From a virus (Duplodnaviria; Heunggongvirae; Uroviricota; Caudoviricetes), in IMG/VR virus record IMGVR_UViG_2526164631_000019: DNA of 9,834 nt. One strand, written 5' to 3'. The position numbers were made by a program, and so were the translations under genes. Shown piece after piece: positions 1,102-9,834 of the stretch. Numbering within the stretch: the stretch's first letter is position 1; each line of letters begins with the position of its first letter. The notes under the pieces are model-generated. The model did not search any database and was not told the DNA's origin. It saw only the letters and a program-made list of their open reading frames with translations.

Positions 1102-1258
1102 CTGCTCCCTCCCTGTGCGGCATGGTCGCATGTGCGTGCGGAGGGGGTTACTGCTTTTTGTTGTCGCCGGGTCGGGAGAACGGCGCAGGGGTGAGATTAC
1201 GCGCGTGGTGGGTGATGATTGTTGCCGAATCATTTAACGGATACAAGGGGCTGAAGCT

Positions 1259-2442
1259 ATGAGTGAAACTCGTTTTCATGGTGCCCGTGTTACGGAAAAT
1301 ACCGACCTGGTAACAGCGATTAACGATGTTGATTCCAGCGTTATCGGTATCGTGGCAACGGCGGATGATGCGGACGCGAAGCTGTTCCCGCTGAACAAGC
1401 CCACACTGCTGACCCGCGTTAATGACGTGCTGGGAAAATGCGGGACAACGGGGACGCTTTATCGTGCGCTTAAGGCCATCGCAGACCAGGTGAGCACAAA
1501 GGTGATCGTCGTTCGCGTGGCTGAACACAAAGAAGAAGACGGAAAGACGCAGGATCAACTGGTTATCGGTGGTTCTGAGGATGACGGCAGCTATACGGGG
1601 ATGTATGCGCTGCTTGTTGCAGAGCAGGATGAAAGCATCGGATACCGTCCGCGTATTCTGGCCGCGCCGGAGCTGGACACGGAGGCGGTGACAAAATCCC
1701 TGTGCGTGATTGCGGGTAAACTGCGCGCGTTTGTGTATGCCTCATGTCACGGCTGTAACACGATGGCTGAGGCGATTACCTACCGCCAGAAATTCAACGA
1801 ACGTGAGGTGATGCTCTTATGGCCGGACTTCATCGCCTACAACCCGAAAAGTGGCAAAAACGAACGTTCCCCGCGCCTGCCTATGCGTGCGGCCTTCGTG
1901 CGTACATTGACCATGAGCAGGGATGGCACAAATCACTGTCCAACGTTCCGGTTAAAAATGTGCTGGGGATGTCGAGGCATGTGTTCTGGTCGTTGCAGGC
2001 CGAAGACAGCGATGCCAACAGCCTCAACAACAAAGAAATCACGACCATTATTCGTCGCAACGGGTTCCGCTTCTGGGGCAACCGCACACCGGAAACGAAC
2101 GCCTACATCTTTGAGGTGTATACCCGAACCGCACAGGTGCTGGCTGATTCAATTGCAGAAGCGCAGTTTGAAACCATCGACAGTCCACTGACGCCTGCGA
2201 ACGTGAAGGATGTTATCAGTGCCATCAGGGCAAAACTGGATTCACTGGTTACTGCCGGGAAACTGATTGGCGCGGAGTGCTGGTATGACGTGGTGGATAA
2301 CAGCACCACGGATTTACGTCAGGGACGTGTGCGTATTCGCTATAAATATACGCCCGTTCCGCCACTGGAAGACATGGAGCTTTACCAGACGTTTACTGAT
2401 GAATACTTTGAACCCGCATTTGCGGTGCTGGGAGGTGCCTGA
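1259..2442 (+). CDS. Contractile tail sheath protein (P2 FI-like); apparent frameshift between about 1856 and 1872
   Basis: ORF 1259..2191 carries the N-terminal two thirds (MSETRFHGARVTE...LLWPDFIAYNPKSGKNE). ORF 1819..2442 in another frame carries the conserved C-terminal part (IDHEQGWHKSLSN...RRNGFRFWGNRT...YTRTAQV...YKYTPVPPLE). The AAGGGG ribosome-binding site lies about 10 nt upstream of the ATG at 1259. Joined length is about 394 aa, typical for sheath. Confidence 0.88.
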
Positions 2443-2953
2443 TGGCTGTGCCAAAACATCTTCGCTTTTTTACGCTGTTTGTGGATGGTGAAAACGAAGT
2501 GGGTAAGGTGACGTCCGTCACTCTGCCCAAACTGACGCGCAAAACCGACAGCTACCGGGGGGGCGCATGATGGGTGCGGTAAGTATTGATCTCGGTCTGG
2601 ACGACTCCGCGCTTGATGCGAGCTTTGTCATGGGGGGCGCAGTTCGTGAGCTGTTCCTTAAGTATGGCGGCACGATTGACGGCACGCTGCTGCGTTTTGC
2701 GGGTGAATACTACACCGATGCAGAAAGCGACCTGTATGAAGTCGAAATGCGCGGACGTGTGACGGAAATTGATATGGGGGAAGCCAAACAGGGCGAAGCC
2801 ACATCACACACTTACGCCATTAAAAACACCTACTACAAGCTGAGTGTTAACGATCGCCCGTTGTGGGAGATTGACCTGCTGAACTTCATTTACCGGAAGG
2901 ACGGCAAGGACATTGTGCCCGATCGCATCCGTTCCGCGCTCGGGCTTGGCTGA
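2442..2953 (+). CDS. Tail tube protein (P2 FII-like); apparent frameshift at G7 homopolymer 2557-2563
   Basis: The ATG at 2442 overlaps the sheath stop (TGATG). The N-terminal ORF reads MAVPKHLRFFTLFVDGENEVGKVTSVTLPKLTRKTDSYRGGA and stops at 2568-2570. ORF 2567..2953 in a different frame continues GAVSIDLGLDD...LRFAGEYY...EVEMRGRVTEIDMGEAKQGE. Both parts match the FII family as recalled (VTLPKLTRK, DLGLDD, MRGR..EID.GE.KQGE). Confidence 0.85.
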
Positions 2954-2965
2954 TAAGTAATATGC

Positions 2966-2986
2966 AGGCGGCGCAGTGCGTCGCCT
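2966..2986 (+). promoter_or_regulatory. GC-rich stem-loop between tube and E genes (possible attenuator or mRNA stability element)
   Basis: AGGCGGCGC agt GCGTCGCCT gives a 9-bp stem with one G-U pair and a 3-nt loop. It sits between the tube stop (2951-2953) and the E ribosome-binding site. No U-tract follows, so it is not a classical intrinsic terminator. Confidence 0.3.
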
Positions 2987-3007
2987 CTGACTGAAAGGAG
3001 TTTCCTG

Positions 3008-3373
3008 ATGAAAGAGACGAAAAACATCGATACCGAAAACACGGTCGTTGCTGACACTGTGAAAGAAACCAGTGAGCGTGGCATAAAACTTACCCAACCA
3101 ATTGAGCGAGGCGGCGAAAAAATCACGTATGTGGAGATCACCGGAGCTATTGAGCAGGCTGGATCTCTGCGAGATTTGTCGTTGTCTGATGTGCTGAATC
3201 TGAAAGCGGAATCCATGTTTACGCTGCTGTCACGCGTGACATCACCGCGACTGGATGAAGTGACGATCAAAAAAATGGCATCCCGTGACTTTATTCAGTT
3301 ATGTGTGGTTGCCGTAAATTTTTTGAGCGGTGCGGACTCTGGCGGGAAGAACGAACAGGCGACGGAAGCCTGA
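3008..3373 (+). CDS. Tail assembly chaperone (P2 gpE-like)
   Basis: 121-aa ORF with AAAGGAG 7 nt upstream of the ATG. Its position directly between tube and tape measure is conserved for this chaperone in contractile-tail clusters. It contains the slippery heptamer T_TTT_TTG at 3319-3325. Confidence 0.75.
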   Translation: MKETKNIDTENTVVADTVKETSERGIKLTQPIERGGEKITYVEITGAIEQAGSLRDLSLSDVLNLKAESMFTLLSRVTSPRLDEVTIKKMASRDFIQLCVVAVNFLSGADSGGKNEQATEA

Positions 3374-3537
3374 TCACGGTTGTGTGCTTTGAGCACATAG
3401 AAGACTTTGTGGCAGATATTGCCGTTATTTTTAACTGGTCGCCCGCCGAAATCTTCATGATGACGCCCGGCGAAGTGGTTAGCTGGCGTGAGCGGGCGGC
3501 ACTTCGCAGCGGGAATGCAGACAATGAAGACTCTTGA
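3008..3537 (+). CDS. Frameshift-extended chaperone (P2 gpE+E'-like), predicted -1 ribosomal frameshift at 3319-3325
   Basis: The -1 frame opens exactly at the slippery site and runs to a TGA at 3535-3537, encoding FERCGLWREERTGDGSLITVVCFEHIEDFVADIAVIFNWSPAEIFMMTPGEVVSWRERAALRSGNADNEDS. Its end overlaps the tape-measure start. Confidence 0.6.
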
Positions 3538-6331
3538 TATCCGGGTCGCTTTCAGCGCCGTTGACAGGCTGACCCGGCCTGCCGAAAACGCCCGCCGCCT
3601 GATGGGGCAGTTTGGTGACTCCATCCAGCGAACGCAGGGGGCGATCAAAAATCTCGAGCGTCAGGCGCGTTCATTTGAGCGCGCCCGCGACGCTGTCAGT
3701 AAAGCGGATGCGGGTATCGTGAAAGCACGACGCCAGCTTAACGCCCTTAATCAGTTACAACGCACGGGTACAGTGCTCAGCGAAAAGCAACAAAAGCTGA
3801 TGCAGCAGTTAAGCACCCGGCTTGAACGCCTGAATGAATCGCGCACACGGGAAATTCAGAAAATGCGGGAGCTTGGCGGAGAGCTGAAACGCCACGGCAT
3901 TTCCCTGACAGGCAGCGATAGCACCATCCAGCAGGCCATCAGACGCACCGAACAGTACAACAACCAGCTTGAACGCGAACGGCAGGCGCTTGCGCGTGTA
4001 ACACGTGCGCGTGAGCGGTATTCGCGCGCGCAGGAAACCGCGGGAAAACTGAAAACAGGTGGTGCGCTGGCAATTGGTGCGGCAGCGGCTGGCAGCTATG
4101 CTGCCGGGCGTTTTTTGCAGCCTGCGATCGGGTTCGGGAAAGAGATGTCCCGCGTTCAGGCACTGACGCGAATCGACCAGAACAGCCCGCAGTTTAAGGC
4201 GCTGCGTGAACAGGCGTTAAAACTTGGCTCTGAAACGCAGTTCACTGCAGGCGATGCCGCCAGTGGGCAGGCATTTCTTGCAATGGCTGGCTTCACTCCG
4301 CAGGCCATTCAGGCTGCGCTTCCCGGCGTACTGAGCATGGCAACGGCTGGCGGTATGGATCTCGGCGAAACGGCAGATATTGGCTCAAATATCCTGACGC
4401 AGTTCGGCCTTTCTGCTGACCAGATGGACCGGGTCGGTGACACGCTCACCGCAGCGTTTACCCGTACCAACACTGACCTTCGCGCACTGGGCGAAACCAT
4501 GAAATATGCAGGTCCGGTGGCGGGCAAGCTGGGAATATCGCTGGAGCAGGCCGCAGCGATGGCGGGCGTGCTGGCGAATATGGGTATCAGGGGAAGTGAT
4601 GCCGGGACGGCAATGCGTGCCAGCCTGGCTCGTCTGGCATCACCGCCAAAGGCGGCAGCAGAGGCGCTGAAAGAGCTTGGTGTGGCAGTCTCTGACGCGA
4701 ACGGCAAAATGCGCCCGATGGAGGATGTGCTGGCTGACCTTTATAAAGCCACCCGCAAATACGGGGAAGTTGACCGGGTATCGTTCTTTAAGGATATTGC
4801 CGGAGAAGAGGCTTTCACATCATTTATGGCCCTCGTTGATGCGGCAGGTGACGGCTCCTTACCCAAACTGAGAAAAGAACTTGAAGGCGCGCGCGGTGAG
4901 GCTGAACGCACAGCAAAGGTTATGGCCAACAACCTTGACGGCGATCTGAAATCACTCGGCAGTGCATGGGAAGGGGTGCGCATCCGCATTGCAGATCTGA
5001 TTGACGGTCCGCAGCGTTCTGTCACGCAGTGGCTCACGCGGGTGGTATCGAAGGTGACGGCGCTGGCGCAGGCCCATCCGGCACTGACGCGCCAGCTACT
5101 GGTTGCAGGCGGTGCTCTGCTGGCAATGACTGCAACCATAGGCTCGTTGTCGCTGGCTATTGGTGTGCTTGCTGGCCCACTGGCAAAACTGCGTCTTGGT
5201 TTTTCCCTCCTGACCGGATCATTGAATGTTGTCAGGGTTCTGCCTGCATTATGGGGAATGGTGACGGGTTCCATTTCGTTACTGGGAGGCGCTATCGGGG
5301 CGCTGTTCAGTCCGGTCGGATTGATTGCTGCTGCGTTTGTGGCTGCGGCGGTTCTCATCTGGAAATACTGGGAACCCATCAAGGCGTTTTATGCAGGGGT
5401 GTTCAGTGGGATTATGGAGCGACTGGCCCCGTTGCGCGAAACCTTTGAACGGTTTGGCCCTGTTTTTGACGCAATCGGAAGCGGGATCAGCCAGGTGTTT
5501 AACTGGTTTAAATCGCTGCTGTCACCGATGGAGTCCAGCAAGGAAACGCTGGATAAATGTACCAGTGCTGGCGAGATATTCGGTAACGTTCTTGGCGGTG
5601 CGTTACAGCTTGTTCTGACACCTGCAAAAATGCTACTGGATACGCTGGCGTGGATACTTGAAAAACTCGGTGTGCTTCCGGATGAAGCGGAAAGGGCGCG
5701 CAAGAAAATCGAAGACGCACAGCGTGCGGCCATTCTTCAGGACAAGGTTGCCTTGCTTCAGGGGGACCTGGCGAAAATCAATCTGCCGAAGCCTGTGGAA
5801 AATGGCAATGGCACCGGAGGTGATAAACCCAAAGACAACAAACCGCTCACAGACAGCAATACCGGTACGCTACGCAGACTCAGCAAAATTGCTGATAACA
5901 CAGGTAAGCTGGTTGATGAGACGAAAAAACGCATTGGCCCCGGCGATATTGTCTTTAAGAACCTGCCCCGCGCACTTGCTGTTCGTGGGGAGTGGCAGGA
6001 GCGGAAGATTGCGCAGGTCAGTAAGCCTGCTTCCGCAATCAACATCACACCCGTGGTCCCGACTCCTCTGCCTCCGGCGCTGGTCCCTGTTGTTGCGGCC
6101 AGCTCCCGCCCGGTGGCGGAGGCCATACGATCGCCAGTGGCATCAGTTCCTGCAACTTCCCGTAACCGGGAGCCTGTTGTCTCCGGATTTGGCGGTGAAA
6201 TTCATGTTCATCTGCATAACGTTGTTACGCAGAATCCCCGCGAACTGGCGAAACTGGTCGGTGAAATGGTCAGGGCAGAATTGGAACGACGCGACCGTGC
6301 CGGACGTGGCAGTTTTTACGATAAAGATTGA
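3515..6331 (+). CDS. Tail tape measure protein (P2 gpT-like)
   Basis: Uninterrupted ORF of roughly 940 aa. The N-terminal region is rich in charged, coiled-coil-like sequence, the central region has long Gly/Ala/Leu-rich hydrophobic stretches and the C-terminus is Pro-rich, which is typical for tape measure proteins. Candidate starts are GTG 3488, ATG 3515 and ATG 3524; the exact start is uncertain. Confidence 0.9.
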   Translation: MQTMKTLDIRVAFSAVDRLTRPAENARRLMGQFGDSIQRTQGAIKNLERQARSFERARDAVSKADAGIVKARRQLNALNQLQRTGTVLSEKQQKLMQQLSTRLERLNESRTREIQKMRELGGELKRHGISLTGSDSTIQQAIRRTEQYNNQLERERQALARVTRARERYSRAQETAGKLKTGGALAIGAAAAGSYAAGRFLQPAIGFGKEMSRVQALTRIDQNSPQFKALREQALKLGSETQFTAGDAASGQAFLAMAGFTPQAIQAALPGVLSMATAGGMDLGETADIGSNILTQFGLSADQMDRVGDTLTAAFTRTNTDLRALGETMKYAGPVAGKLGISLEQAAAMAGVLANMGIRGSDAGTAMRASLARLASPPKAAAEALKELGVAVSDANGKMRPMEDVLADLYKATRKYGEVDRVSFFKDIAGEEAFTSFMALVDAAGDGSLPKLRKELEGARGEAERTAKVMANNLDGDLKSLGSAWEGVRIRIADLIDGPQRSVTQWLTRVVSKVTALAQAHPALTRQLLVAGGALLAMTATIGSLSLAIGVLAGPLAKLRLGFSLLTGSLNVVRVLPALWGMVTGSISLLGGAIGALFSPVGLIAAAFVAAAVLIWKYWEPIKAFYAGVFSGIMERLAPLRETFERFGPVFDAIGSGISQVFNWFKSLLSPMESSKETLDKCTSAGEIFGNVLGGALQLVLTPAKMLLDTLAWILEKLGVLPDEAERARKKIEDAQRAAILQDKVALLQGDLAKINLPKPVENGNGTGGDKPKDNKPLTDSNTGTLRRLSKIADNTGKLVDETKKRIGPGDIVFKNLPRALAVRGEWQERKIAQVSKPASAINITPVVPTPLPPALVPVVAASSRPVAEAIRSPVASVPATSRNREPVVSGFGGEIHVHLHNVVTQNPRELAKLVGEMVRAELERRDRAGRGSFYDKD

Positions 6332-6337
6332 GGAGTC

Positions 6338-6832
6338 ATGGCCATGATGATGATCTACGGCATGTTTGTTTTTGAGCTGCGCACATTGCCGCATCAGCAG
6401 TTACAGCAAAATAAAAGCTGGCGGCATGTGAAAAATGAACGCGTTAACCGTTCAGCAAGCTGGCAGTATATCGGGGCAGGCGATGATCGCATCGTGCTTT
6501 CTGGTGTGCTTTATCCTGAAATCACAGGTGGCGAAGTGTCGCTGTCGCTGCTGACCACGCAGGCGTATACAGGACGCCCCTGGCCTCTGATTGATGGCGT
6601 CGGACAGATTTACGGCATGTATGTACTGACTGAAACGAATACGACCCGCTCCGAGTTTGATCGCTACGGTAAGGCGAAAAAGATAGAATTTTCACTGACT
6701 CTTGAACGCTGTGATGAGGATTTGCGGGAGCGCCTGCAATCCTCATCGTTCAGTGATATGCTGTCCGGCTTCAAAGATAAGGTCACATCATCCCTTAACA
6801 GCGCGGCCAGCTCCGTTAAAGGGCTGTTTTGA
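6338..6832 (+). CDS. Tail protein U (P2 gpU-like)
   Basis: The product begins MAMMMIYGMFVFELRTLP and contains WRH...LSGVLYPEITGG...WPLIDG...IYGMYV...RSEF, matching gpU as recalled. GGAG at 6332-6335 favours the ATG at 6344 as the true start. The gene follows the tape-measure stop directly. Confidence 0.85.
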   Translation: MAMMMIYGMFVFELRTLPHQQLQQNKSWRHVKNERVNRSASWQYIGAGDDRIVLSGVLYPEITGGEVSLSLLTTQAYTGRPWPLIDGVGQIYGMYVLTETNTTRSEFDRYGKAKKIEFSLTLERCDEDLRERLQSSSFSDMLSGFKDKVTSSLNSAASSVKGLF

Positions 6833-6839
6833 TTAACGC

Positions 6840-6869
6840 AAAACCGCTAATGGTCAGATTAGCGGTTTT
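6840..6869. terminator. Hairpin terminator between convergent gpU and invertase genes
   Basis: AAAACCGCTAAT ggtcag ATTAGCGGTTTT is a perfect 12-bp stem with a 6-nt loop, followed by a T-rich run (cattttcc) on the plus strand. It starts 8 nt after the gpU stop and overlaps the last codons of the invertase ORF. Confidence 0.6.
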
Positions 6870-7458
6870 CATTTTCCTGAGTCTGCCTGGTTGTTTCTTC
6901 AGCCTGTATATCGCCTACAGGGTGATAACGATAAATCGTCGATATGCCGATGTCGTAAATGATCGCCAGTTGTTTCCTGTCATGACCGTTTTTAATCAGC
7001 CTCGCTATTTGCTCGTGTTGTTCTTTTGTCAACTTCGGGCGACGTCCGCCAATGCGTCCTTGTGCGCGTGCTGCTGCCAGCCCGGCCAGTGTACGCTCTA
7101 CAATTAATTCACGTTCCATTTCGGCTAAAGCTCCCATGACGTGAAAAAAGAAACGCCCCATGGGTGTTGATGTGTCAATGCTGTCCGTTAGACTACGGAA
7201 ATTAACACCTTTTTCCCGCAATTCCTCAATAAGCGTGATCAGGTGTTTCATACTTCTGCCCAGTCTGTCCAGCTTCCAGACAACCAGCGTATCTCCTTCT
7301 GATAGCGTTCTGAGCAGTTTTTTCAATCCCGGTCTGGCTGATTTCGTTCCGCTGATTTTATCTTCAAAAATCAGTTCACATCCTGCGCACTCCAGCGCGT
7401 TACGCTGCAATTCTGTATTCTGGTCATTTGTTGATACGCGGACATAGCCAATAAGCAT
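6859..7458 (-). CDS. Serine site-specific DNA invertase, Hin/Gin/Cin/Pin family
   Basis: The 199-aa product begins MLIGYVRVSTNDQNTELQRNALECAGCELIFEDKISG and contains TLVVWKLDRLGRSMKHLI, FRSLTDSIDTSTPMGRFFFHVMGALAEMERELI and GGRRPKLT, nearly identical to Gin/Hin over the catalytic domain as recalled. The catalytic Ser is at position 9. A C-terminal helix-turn-helix region follows, then a tail of about 15-20 extra residues. Confidence 0.95.
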   Translation of the reverse strand: MLIGYVRVSTNDQNTELQRNALECAGCELIFEDKISGTKSARPGLKKLLRTLSEGDTLVVWKLDRLGRSMKHLITLIEELREKGVNFRSLTDSIDTSTPMGRFFFHVMGALAEMERELIVERTLAGLAAARAQGRIGGRRPKLTKEQHEQIARLIKNGHDRKQLAIIYDIGISTIYRYHPVGDIQAEETTRQTQENENR

Positions 7459-7513
7459 GATGGATCCCCTGAATAAAAACCGGGGATGATGCCAGTTAGC
7501 CGTAATCTCTGCA

Positions 7514-7539
7514 TTTTCTTAAACGTTGGTTTAGGAGAA
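7514..7539. repeat. Crossover site 1 for the invertase (hix/gix/cix-like 26-bp site)
   Basis: TTTTCTTAAACG TT GGTTTAGGAGAA. Its reverse complement TTCTCCTAAACC AA CGTTTAAGAAAA resembles the hix consensus TTCTTGAAAACC AA GGTTTTTGATAA. The central dinucleotide is at 7526-7527, 68 bp from the invertase start codon. Confidence 0.8.
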
Positions 7540-7884
7540 GCGGCAAAACGGAATGTGGGCACAGGAGATAATCAGATACCGGATATGGGAGCATTCGCTT
7601 CTGGTTCGGGATGGTTCAGGCTACCAGGTGGATATATTGTTCAGTTTGGCACTTTTGCAGGAAACACGACCCGCTTTATCAGTGGACACTTCCCTATACC
7701 ATTCCCTAATCAGCCGATGGTTTCAGTCAGTGTTATGTCTGATGCCGTTCAGTCAGACCCGTCGATTCCTGCCCCGCAGGTTTTGTCTGTAAATTTTGAA
7801 CATATCAGTAATTCAGCGTGGCGTGTGGCAACCAGTGATATCTCACAGCAATACAGATTCAGTTATATTTCGATAGGACGGTAG
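7528..7884 (+). CDS. Silent alternative tail-fibre C-terminal cassette (no start codon of its own; expressed only after inversion)
   Basis: An open frame starts at the crossover core and encodes [62 protein letters not shown]...[12 protein letters not shown], ending at TAG 7882-7884. The first codons (GGT TTA GGA GAA = GLGE) match those just inside the site in the expressed fibre gene. A tail-fibre assembly gene follows 2 nt downstream. Confidence 0.7.
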   Translation, partial: [118 protein letters not shown]

Positions 7885-7886
7885 AA

Positions 7887-8327
7887 ATGCAGAAATATAT
7901 TTTCAGTGCCGATAAAAATGCGTTTTTCCCTGTGGAGCTTAAAATCGCTTATCAGGAATCCGGCGAATGGCCCGATGATGGAATCGAAATTGACGACACT
8001 GTTGCTGCCGAATTTATGAAGGAAGCACCAGAAGGAAAATACAGAGGTGTCATCGACGGAATGCCTGCATGGATTGATATTCCACCGCCAACTCATGAGG
8101 AACAAATTGCCGCAGCCGAACTGAAAAAGCAGCAATTGATTAATCAGGTCAACGAATACATAAACAGTAAGCAATGGCCTGGTAAAGCGGCGATTGGTCG
8201 CCTGAAAGGTGAGGAACTGGTGCAATATAATTTGTGGCTGGATTATCTGGACGCACTGGAACTGGTCGATACTTCCGGTGCGCCAGATATTGAATGGCCT
8301 ACGCCTCCGGCAGTTCAGGCCAGATGA
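7887..8327 (+). CDS. Tail fibre assembly protein (Tfa), partner of the silent cassette
   Basis: 146-aa ORF with AGGA 8 nt upstream of the ATG. The C-terminus LVDTSGAPDIEWPTPP is the Tfa-type motif also found in the convergent Tfa (TDTSTAPDVIWPELP). Its position directly after a fibre cassette fits the role. Confidence 0.85.
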   Translation: MQKYIFSADKNAFFPVELKIAYQESGEWPDDGIEIDDTVAAEFMKEAPEGKYRGVIDGMPAWIDIPPPTHEEQIAAAELKKQQLINQVNEYINSKQWPGKAAIGRLKGEELVQYNLWLDYLDALELVDTSGAPDIEWPTPPAVQAR

Positions 8328-8892
8328 CATCCGGTGCGGTGCTGGTATCTGTTGCCGTCACCGCGTCAATATAATCCAGCACAGCGTTAAGTCGGGTGTT
8401 TTCTGGCTGCGTCAGCTTCCGCACGGCCTGTAATTTCAGTTGAATCAGACTGATGGAAGCCATTGCAGCATCAATCAGCGACTGGCGCTTTACTTCTGCC
8501 GCGTCTAGTGCGGCGCTATGCTGTGCCTCGGTATCCGTCACCCATTTCTCACCATCCCATTTATCGTATGGCGTTAACGGTGAAAGCGTGACATAACCGT
8601 CTTTGATGGCACCGATATAATCCACTGTAACAGCTGCGCCATTTTCGATTGAGTAAACAGTCTCATTGCGGTGGTCTTCTTCATGGCTCCATCCCTTACC
8701 CGTAAATACTGCCACTCTTCCCGGAATGTATTCGCCCGGGTCAATACCAGTGGAACAAGCGGGCATACTTACGCCAGTATTAATATATTCATCAGACCAG
8801 CCAGTATATTCATACGTAACTGCCTCATAATAAAAACAACGCATATTACCCGGTACTGTAGCCAGCCCATTTTCATCAAAAACAGGTTTCAT
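8299..8892 (-). CDS. Tail fibre assembly protein (Tfa), partner of the currently expressed fibre C-terminus
   Basis: 197-aa ORF whose ATG overlaps the fibre stop codon by 1 nt (TAATG). The C-terminal motif is TDTSTAPDVIWPELPEA. It lies inside the invertible segment. Confidence 0.85.
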   Translation of the reverse strand: MKPVFDENGLATVPGNMRCFYYEAVTYEYTGWSDEYINTGVSMPACSTGIDPGEYIPGRVAVFTGKGWSHEEDHRNETVYSIENGAAVTVDYIGAIKDGYVTLSPLTPYDKWDGEKWVTDTEAQHSAALDAAEVKRQSLIDAAMASISLIQLKLQAVRKLTQPENTRLNAVLDYIDAVTATDTSTAPDVIWPELPEA

Positions 8893-9834
8893 TATTTAGC
8901 CCTCACTAGAAAGTTAAATGCAATATTTCGTGGGCGGGTTTCTGTACCTACATTTCCACTAATTTCACCATAACGTTTAACGCTACGAGAGCTAATAGCT
9001 CGTAGTGAGGAAGGCACCCTAAGACCGGGTTCGTCCGTTTTAACTATTCCCCCGTCACCATATGTAGCCAGTATTCCTGGGTTTACTCCTTCCCGTGTAC
9101 TTCCTGCGACAAGCCCGTCCCCCGTCCACAATTCCATATTGTGTGCATGATCCATAATTGTGTGTGATTGCCCTGAAAGTAGGGTACGTCCGACATCAAT
9201 CCCGCGTCCGTCATCCCAGATACGAATGAAATCACCGCGTGCGTCAGGTAATGCCAGCGCCGGAAACACTTTCGCCAGCACAGGGTAATCAGTGGCAGAG
9301 AATTTCGCGCCGTTGAACTTCAAAAACACCATGCTGGACCAGCTATCGATTACGGTATCTGGCATTGCTGCGGACGGCCAGAAGAACGGAACGCCAATAG
9401 CTGGAGCACCTTCTCCCAAACCAAGGTAATCAAGAACTCCCTGAGTGCTGGTTTTACCAAGAATGGCACGTCCAACACTTGTCAACGCGGTTAACGCGGC
9501 ACGATCTGCCCCTGTAAAATATGGGAGTTTATCTGCTGATGTAGCAAGCTCCGCCAGCGCCGTCAGGGTGGCATCCTTCGGTTGCTTACCCGCAAGCGCG
9601 TTAGTCATGGTGGTCGCAAAATTCGGGTCATTGCCCAGCGCCGCAGCCAGTTCGTTCAGCGTGTTCAGTGCATCAGGTGACGAATCTACAAGTGCGGCAA
9701 TCGCAGCCATAACGAAAGCCGTGCTTGCGATCTGGGTACTATTAGTCCCCTGTGGCGCTGTTGGTGTTGTTGGCGTTCCGGTCAGTGCCGGGCTGTTTAA
9801 TGGTGCTTTCTTGTTCGTTTCATCCATTACCGCC
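8892..9834 (-). CDS. Tail fibre protein (P2 gpH-like constant region fused to variable C-terminal domain); 5' end beyond right edge of window
   Basis: The frame is open to the window edge, so the Met at 9827 is internal. The constant part (DETNKKAPLNSPALTGTPTTPT...NTLNELAAALGNDPNFATTMTNALAGKQPKDATLTALA) resembles P2-type fibres as recalled. The part downstream of the crossover site contains a tail-collar-like motif (LPDARGDFIRIWDDGRGIDVGRTL). Confidence 0.9.
   Translation of the reverse strand, partial: AVMDETNKKAPLNSPALTGTPTTPTAPQGTNSTQIASTAFVMAAIAALVDSSPDALNTLNELAAALGNDPNFATTMTNALAGKQPKDATLTALAELATSADKLPYFTGADRAALTALTSVGRAILGKTSTQGVLDYLGLGEGAPAIGVPFFWPSAAMPDTVIDSWSSMVFLKFNGAKFSATDYPVLAKVFPALALPDARGDFIRIWDDGRGIDVGRTLLSGQSHTIMDHAHNMELWTGDGLVAGSTREGVNPGILATYGDGGIVKTDEPGLRVPSSLRAISSRSVKRYGEISGNVGTETRPRNIAFNFLVRAK
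9411..9436. repeat. Crossover site 2 for the invertase, inside the fibre coding sequence
   Basis: TTCTCCCAAACC AA GGTAATCAAGAA is inverted relative to site 1. The half-site inside the segment matches the reverse complement of site 1 at 11 of 12 positions, and the core AA is identical. On the minus strand it encodes VLDYL-GLGE with the core in codon positions 2-3, the same phase as at site 1. Confidence 0.8.

Follow-up and report, generated by a model that had tools for sequence, protein, structure and literature searches.

The tail sheath gene of a P88-like prophage is split between two reading frames in the 9834-nt stretch of DNA analyzed here (the window). We attribute this frameshift to a sequencing or assembly artefact without biological significance, a reading that we hold with a probability of roughly 0.9. 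One A is missing from the record (GAACG in place of GAAACG; positions 1862-1866, plus strand), as established by pairwise alignments and by a tally over the fetched loci. The break is very probably an error of sequencing or assembly because the finished genome of what is near-certainly the same strain carries the gene intact. The preliminary description of this DNA had called the frameshift "apparent" and in need of a check at the level of reads. This wording was apt, as the complete genome CP077479.1 carries the extra A: the frameshift is present in the record and very probably absent from the organism.

The window is the entire contig AIHA01000057.1 of the Escherichia coli DEC12A draft assembly (GCA_000250215.2) and contains the tail module of a P2-type, P88-like prophage. 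Its DNA is 98.9% identical to that of Escherichia phage P88 (Xuanwuvirus, Peduoviridae), and about 1400 of the 5426 complete E. coli genomes have prophages that match the region. The gpD gene (late control D/VgrG-like tail protein), cut by the contig end, occupies positions 1-1101 on the minus strand. On the plus strand are the tail sheath gene (P2 gpFI-like, 1259-2442), read in the record as ORFs 1259-2191 and 1819-2442 and assigned from these ORFs, Pfam matches, and an alignment to a pyocin sheath, and the tail tube gene (gpFII-like, 2442-2953). The genes for the tail chaperone gpE/E+E' (3008-3537), the tape measure protein (3488-6331), and gpU (6338-6832) lie downstream. The ORF map and the annotations of matching loci thus show the sheath gene in synteny with tube, tail chaperone, tape measure, gpU, and gpD, and P88 has the same order: gpD (minus strand), sheath, tube, gpE/E', tape measure, gpU.

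Two further features of the module were observed. Tail assembly chaperones of the P2 type are expected to use a programmed frameshift, and a canonical P2-type slippery sequence, T TTT TTG, was found at 3319-3325, near the end of gpE (3008-3373), with a -1 ORF that extends to 3537 (E+E'). At the other end of the contig (6859-9834), a serine invertase of the recombinase family (6859-7458, minus strand) adjoins alternative tail-fibre and tail-fibre-assembly genes, which follow it on both strands, the tail-fibre C-terminal and assembly genes being oppositely oriented. The arrangement is reminiscent of the invertible segments that govern host range in Mu (G segment) and P1 (C segment). The contig itself contains no strong inverted repeat; therefore, one crossover site probably lies beyond the contig end.

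The exact site of the frame switch was determined by alignment to intact sheath orthologues. The 310-aa ORF (1259-2191) encodes authentic sheath sequence up to ...WPDFIAYNPKSGKNE (...NPKSGKNE) and is out of frame thereafter. The 207-aa ORF (1819-2442), one frame back, contributes ...FPAPAYACGLRAYIDHEQGWHK... and continues as far as the sheath C-terminus. The out-of-frame tail of the 310-aa ORF (…ERSPRLPMRAAF…; 1865-2191, plus strand), delimited by three-frame translation, has no Pfam hit and is not real protein sequence. The two-frame pattern is not a product of chance, because each half shows 100% identity to the intact protein WP_000005390.1 and the join between the frames falls within the Pfam Phage_sheath_1 domain. 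Where the orthologues read GGCAAAAACGAAACGTTCCCC, the window has GGCAAAAACGAACGTTCCCC; the gap falls at 1863/1864. The switch had originally been placed within 1856-1872, and the alignment bears this out, pinpointing a single missing A (GAAACG to GAACG). The A5 (1856-1860) and C4 runs to which attention had been drawn are both spared; the missing base belongs to a short A3 run between the two.

Re-insertion of one A yielded a sheath of exactly 394 aa, identical to WP_000005390.1, in agreement with the length of about 394 aa expected beforehand from a single-base repair. The restored protein scored 45.0 bits for Gp18_domIII_N, 71.6 bits for Phage_sheath_1, and 39.1 bits for Phage_sheath_1C, against Pfam gathering cut-offs of 27, 31.4, and 26.9 bits, respectively. 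With all three domains above their cut-offs, it is a contractile-tail sheath of the P2 gpFI/Phage_sheath_1 family. As written in the window, these domains are shared out between the two ORFs, and the 310-aa ORF matches Gp18_domIII_N only (residues 28-87). The P88 sheath (YP_009113092.1, P2 gpFI-like) and the prophage protein WP_000005390.1 are of the same length; compared with them, the window sheath lacks one A, and the gene is split in this record only. The restored sheath also aligned end to end (residues 6-384, E = 2.4e-47) with the R-type pyocin sheath PA0622 (PDB code: 3j9q), and the alignment passes straight through the break in a conserved block (PAPAYACGL/PASAYAAGL). PA0622 is a distant homologue from a tailocin rather than a phage, and it is cited here only because it shows the restored reading to be native.

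The product of the 310-aa ORF is deposited as EHX22382.1, "major tail sheath protein [Escherichia coli DEC12A]", and occurs on one contig, AIHA01000057.1 itself. A 6620-nt part of the window (3215-9834), which takes in the variable tail-fibre and invertase region, shows 100.0% identity to CP077479.1, the complete genome of E. coli O111:H2 strain 12A. This match is unique among the 5426 complete E. coli genomes, the next best being 96-97% identical. On the strength of sequence identity and serotype, strain 12A is almost certainly the same strain as DEC12A; a literature search returned nothing on a stated link between the two or on the platform used to sequence the DEC drafts. In CP077479.1, the sheath gene (1185 nt) and the tube gene (513 nt) are both annotated as intact, so that this independent assembly of the matching strain does not reproduce the sheath lesion. 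The matching prophage (copy A) lies near raiA/bamD, and a second P88-like prophage (copy B) lies near tRNA-Leu/pgsA. Both copies, as well as phage P88, have GAAACG at the lesion site. Across positions 1200-3000, two missing bases, at 1863 and 2565, are the sole differences between the window and copy A. The strain 12A genome contains a third place that also matches the tail module. It was rejected as a plain source of the window, since no place in that genome matches 1800-1930 at 100%.

We then compared the substitutions and indels of the window with both prophage copies. Relative to copy A, the window has 16 true substitutions, and all 16 carry the copy-B allele. Within positions 1-933, the window switches between A and B alleles over less than 100 nt, and it does so again at 3182 and 3214. 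Because every substitution carries the copy-B allele, the contig reads as a mixed consensus assembled from reads of two repeat copies. The private differences, found in neither copy, number about 10 and are all 1-nt indels; no private substitution was detected against copies A and B. These indels are confined to the first 2.6 kb, and the other 7.2 kb is free of private differences, the 16 copy-B alleles aside. In natural E. coli mutation, substitutions far outnumber indels, as mutation-accumulation studies have found. The private changes do not follow this spectrum of substitutions and indels, and about 10 indels with no substitution therefore point to a technical cause. Errors of early draft genomes, namely homopolymer or short-run indels and consensus errors at collapsed repeats, offer a close parallel: the window likewise has private changes that are only 1-nt indels in short runs, mixed alleles of two repeat copies, and lesions that are absent from the finished genome of the matching strain.

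The second missing base lies in the tube gene, at about 2565 (2557-2570, codons R-G-G-G), where GGC GGC has become GGC GC. In the window, the tube gene is thereby split into 42 and 128 aa, and restoring the G gives a 170-aa protein identical to WP_000290450.1. The same 42-aa fragment occurs on five other contigs, from other strains, in three synonymous backgrounds (GGGGGGGCGC, GGGGTGGTGC, and GGGGGGGGGC). The possibility that the Logan contigs sharing this fragment come from the same strain was rejected, as their identity with copies A and B is 94.7-98.9%. Other frameshift products arise at the same codons, including a 49-aa product on 110 contigs and another 42-aa variant on 38. Since the same and other frameshift products recur on many contigs, the G-rich stretch is an indel hot spot, whether real or technical. 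The frameshift is rare in complete RefSeq genomes, with no 100% match among the best hits listed.

The remaining private indels, about 8 single-base events in 70 nt, are clustered at 333-399 in the lysine-rich KKKKVSVKRRKPKKEK region of gpD (minus strand): T5 to T6, T4 to T3, T3 to T4 twice, an added T at 363, T6 to T7, T5 to T4, and an added T at 399. The T added at 399 produces TGG ACT TGA, and the stop at 394-396 shortens gpD, the products of which are called as fragments of 235 and 99 aa. None of these indels is present in strain 12A copies A and B, in P88, or in the best complete-genome hits; each of these comparators is 4 nt shorter. The cluster belongs to the same error signature as the sheath lesion. 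The gpD region is also naturally variable in length, because P88 also differs there by an in-frame 9-nt indel. Separately, gpD in copy A of strain 12A (locus L001, 6793-7646) has an annotated length of just 801 nt (VgrG/Pvc8 family) and adjoins a small partial pseudogene, and in copy B it is full, at 1110 nt. The short annotation is also present in several other genomes.

The distribution of the sheath deletion was examined in complete genomes, viral contigs, and metagenomes. A search with positions 1800-1930 gave 1373 records from complete E. coli genomes and no 100% match; the best aligned at 131/132, and all the complete-genome hits listed are 1 nt longer than the window. The deletion is absent from the approximately 1370 complete genomes that carry the sheath gene. 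A 33-mer with the deletion matched no JGI metagenome contig and one IMG/VR contig, compared with at least 120 IMG/VR contigs for the intact 34-mer. Among the other fetched contigs having the site, 126 of 127 read GAAACG. The sole other occurrence of the deletion is on a contig (L013) of a 2012-era draft of E. coli EPEC C342-62 (EIQ70432.1), a different prophage sequence that is 97% identical to the window. There, in the stretch 7654-7803, the sheath gene lacks the same A and has gained a T 50 nt downstream (ACCATGAG to ACCATTGAG), which brings the frame back; the ORF is full-length at 394 aa, with 17 residues scrambled (RSPRLLMRAAFVRTLTI). This contig has further private homopolymer indels, and its sheath allele is found in no complete genome, being private to that contig. 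At the run of the missing A, a multiply frameshifted NCTC draft (L134) has GAAAAACG. We read the lesion site as one at which lower-quality assemblies are prone to error. The 79-aa C-terminal sheath ORF occurs on 33 contigs. The 10 places examined were mostly truncations at contig ends, with three NCTC drafts having indels elsewhere, and none has the lesion of the window.

A genuine pseudogene is the alternative that fares best, although we consider it improbable. It would require that the prophage in the DEC12A culture sequenced in about 2011 was decaying, with the sheath gene (together with tube and gpD) frameshifted, and that the culture used for the complete genome was free of the mutation. 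Prophage genes often decay through frameshifts, three adjacent tail genes are hit in the contig, the same A is missing from the independent EPEC C342-62 draft, and other assemblies, including some built from Illumina reads, repeatedly show tube frameshifts at the Gly-Gly-Gly codons. Against these points, every affected site is intact in CP077479.1, the excess of private indels over substitutions in 2.6 kb is unlike natural mutation, the contig is visibly mixed between two prophage copies, and the deletion is missing from the complete genomes that have the gene.

A related alternative, to which we give only a small chance, is that there is a real slippage hot spot in the short direct repeat AAACG-AAACG, where P88-like prophages would repeatedly lose a base and sometimes compensate for it. 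DEC12A and EPEC C342-62 would be two such cases, and the DEC12A stock of 2011 would have held a genuinely sheath-defective prophage. The missing A shared with EPEC C342-62 could indicate that the repeat is prone to slippage, and in this respect it counts against an artefact; the other private indels of the EPEC contig, and an allele not seen in complete genomes, temper the argument.

The two frames could in principle be joined into a full-length sheath if the ribosome underwent a programmed -1 frameshift, or the transcript slipped, close to the A5 run. Restoration of the frame requires a -1 shift, the A5 run lies just upstream, and the same tail module has a real -1 frameshift in gpE/E+E' (T TTT TTG). 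The sheath site differs from the P2 E/E+E' case, for which the canonical site is present in the window, in lacking a heptamer, a conserved two-frame layout, and a stimulatory structure. In the zero frame, GGC AAA AAC GAA CGT gives C AAA AAC, which does not fit the heptamer pattern X XXY YYZ. The 111 nt downstream are no more stably folded than shuffled sequence, with a minimum free energy of -29.3 compared with a shuffle mean of -30.1 (z = 0.24). The gene is a single ORF in approximately 1370 genomes and in at least 120 viral contigs. A run of five A residues is, moreover, too short for efficient transcriptional slippage. We therefore rejected recoding at the sheath site as extremely unlikely. 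A naturally split sheath, made as two polypeptides that assemble together, has the two ORFs of this record and nothing further in its favour, and it was rejected as scarcely credible because the split falls inside the Phage_sheath_1 domain, the upstream ORF runs on for 108 codons in a frame without homology, no start codon is present where homology begins in the downstream part, and the orthologue survey found the family unsplit, contrary to the natural split that had been named as a way in which the frameshift call might fail.

As for how an artefact of this kind may have come about, an erroneous base call or consensus in a draft of the 2012 era very probably accounts for the break, which is then not a property of the prophage. 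At least two P88-like prophages, about 97-99% identical, are present in the strain, so that the contig lies in a repeated region. At its left end, the assembler's consensus blends reads from both copies, and in these poorly resolved 2.6 kb it very probably gained or lost single bases in short runs, with AAA shortened to AA in the sheath gene, GG shortened to G in the tube gene, and several T runs altered in gpD. Some observations do not sit easily with this account. The sheath and tube indels fall in short runs (A3 and G2) rather than in long homopolymers, the insertions at 363 and 399 lie outside homopolymers, unlike typical homopolymer errors, and the indels cluster in the first 2.6 kb instead of being spread over the whole contig.

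The finding matters as quality control only. EHX22382.1 (310 aa, ending in 108 out-of-frame residues) and EHX22383.1 (79 aa of the C-terminal part, called from an internal start) are best regarded as artefactual fragments, as are the neighbouring tube and gpD fragments, and none of them should be counted as evidence of pseudogenes, prophage decay, or recoding. Were the frameshift real after all, one prophage copy would carry an ordinary inactivating mutation, which is likewise unremarkable. On the artefact reading, the sheath gene in the cell would be normal and intact, 1185 nt in length, and would encode a 394-aa contractile-tail sheath.
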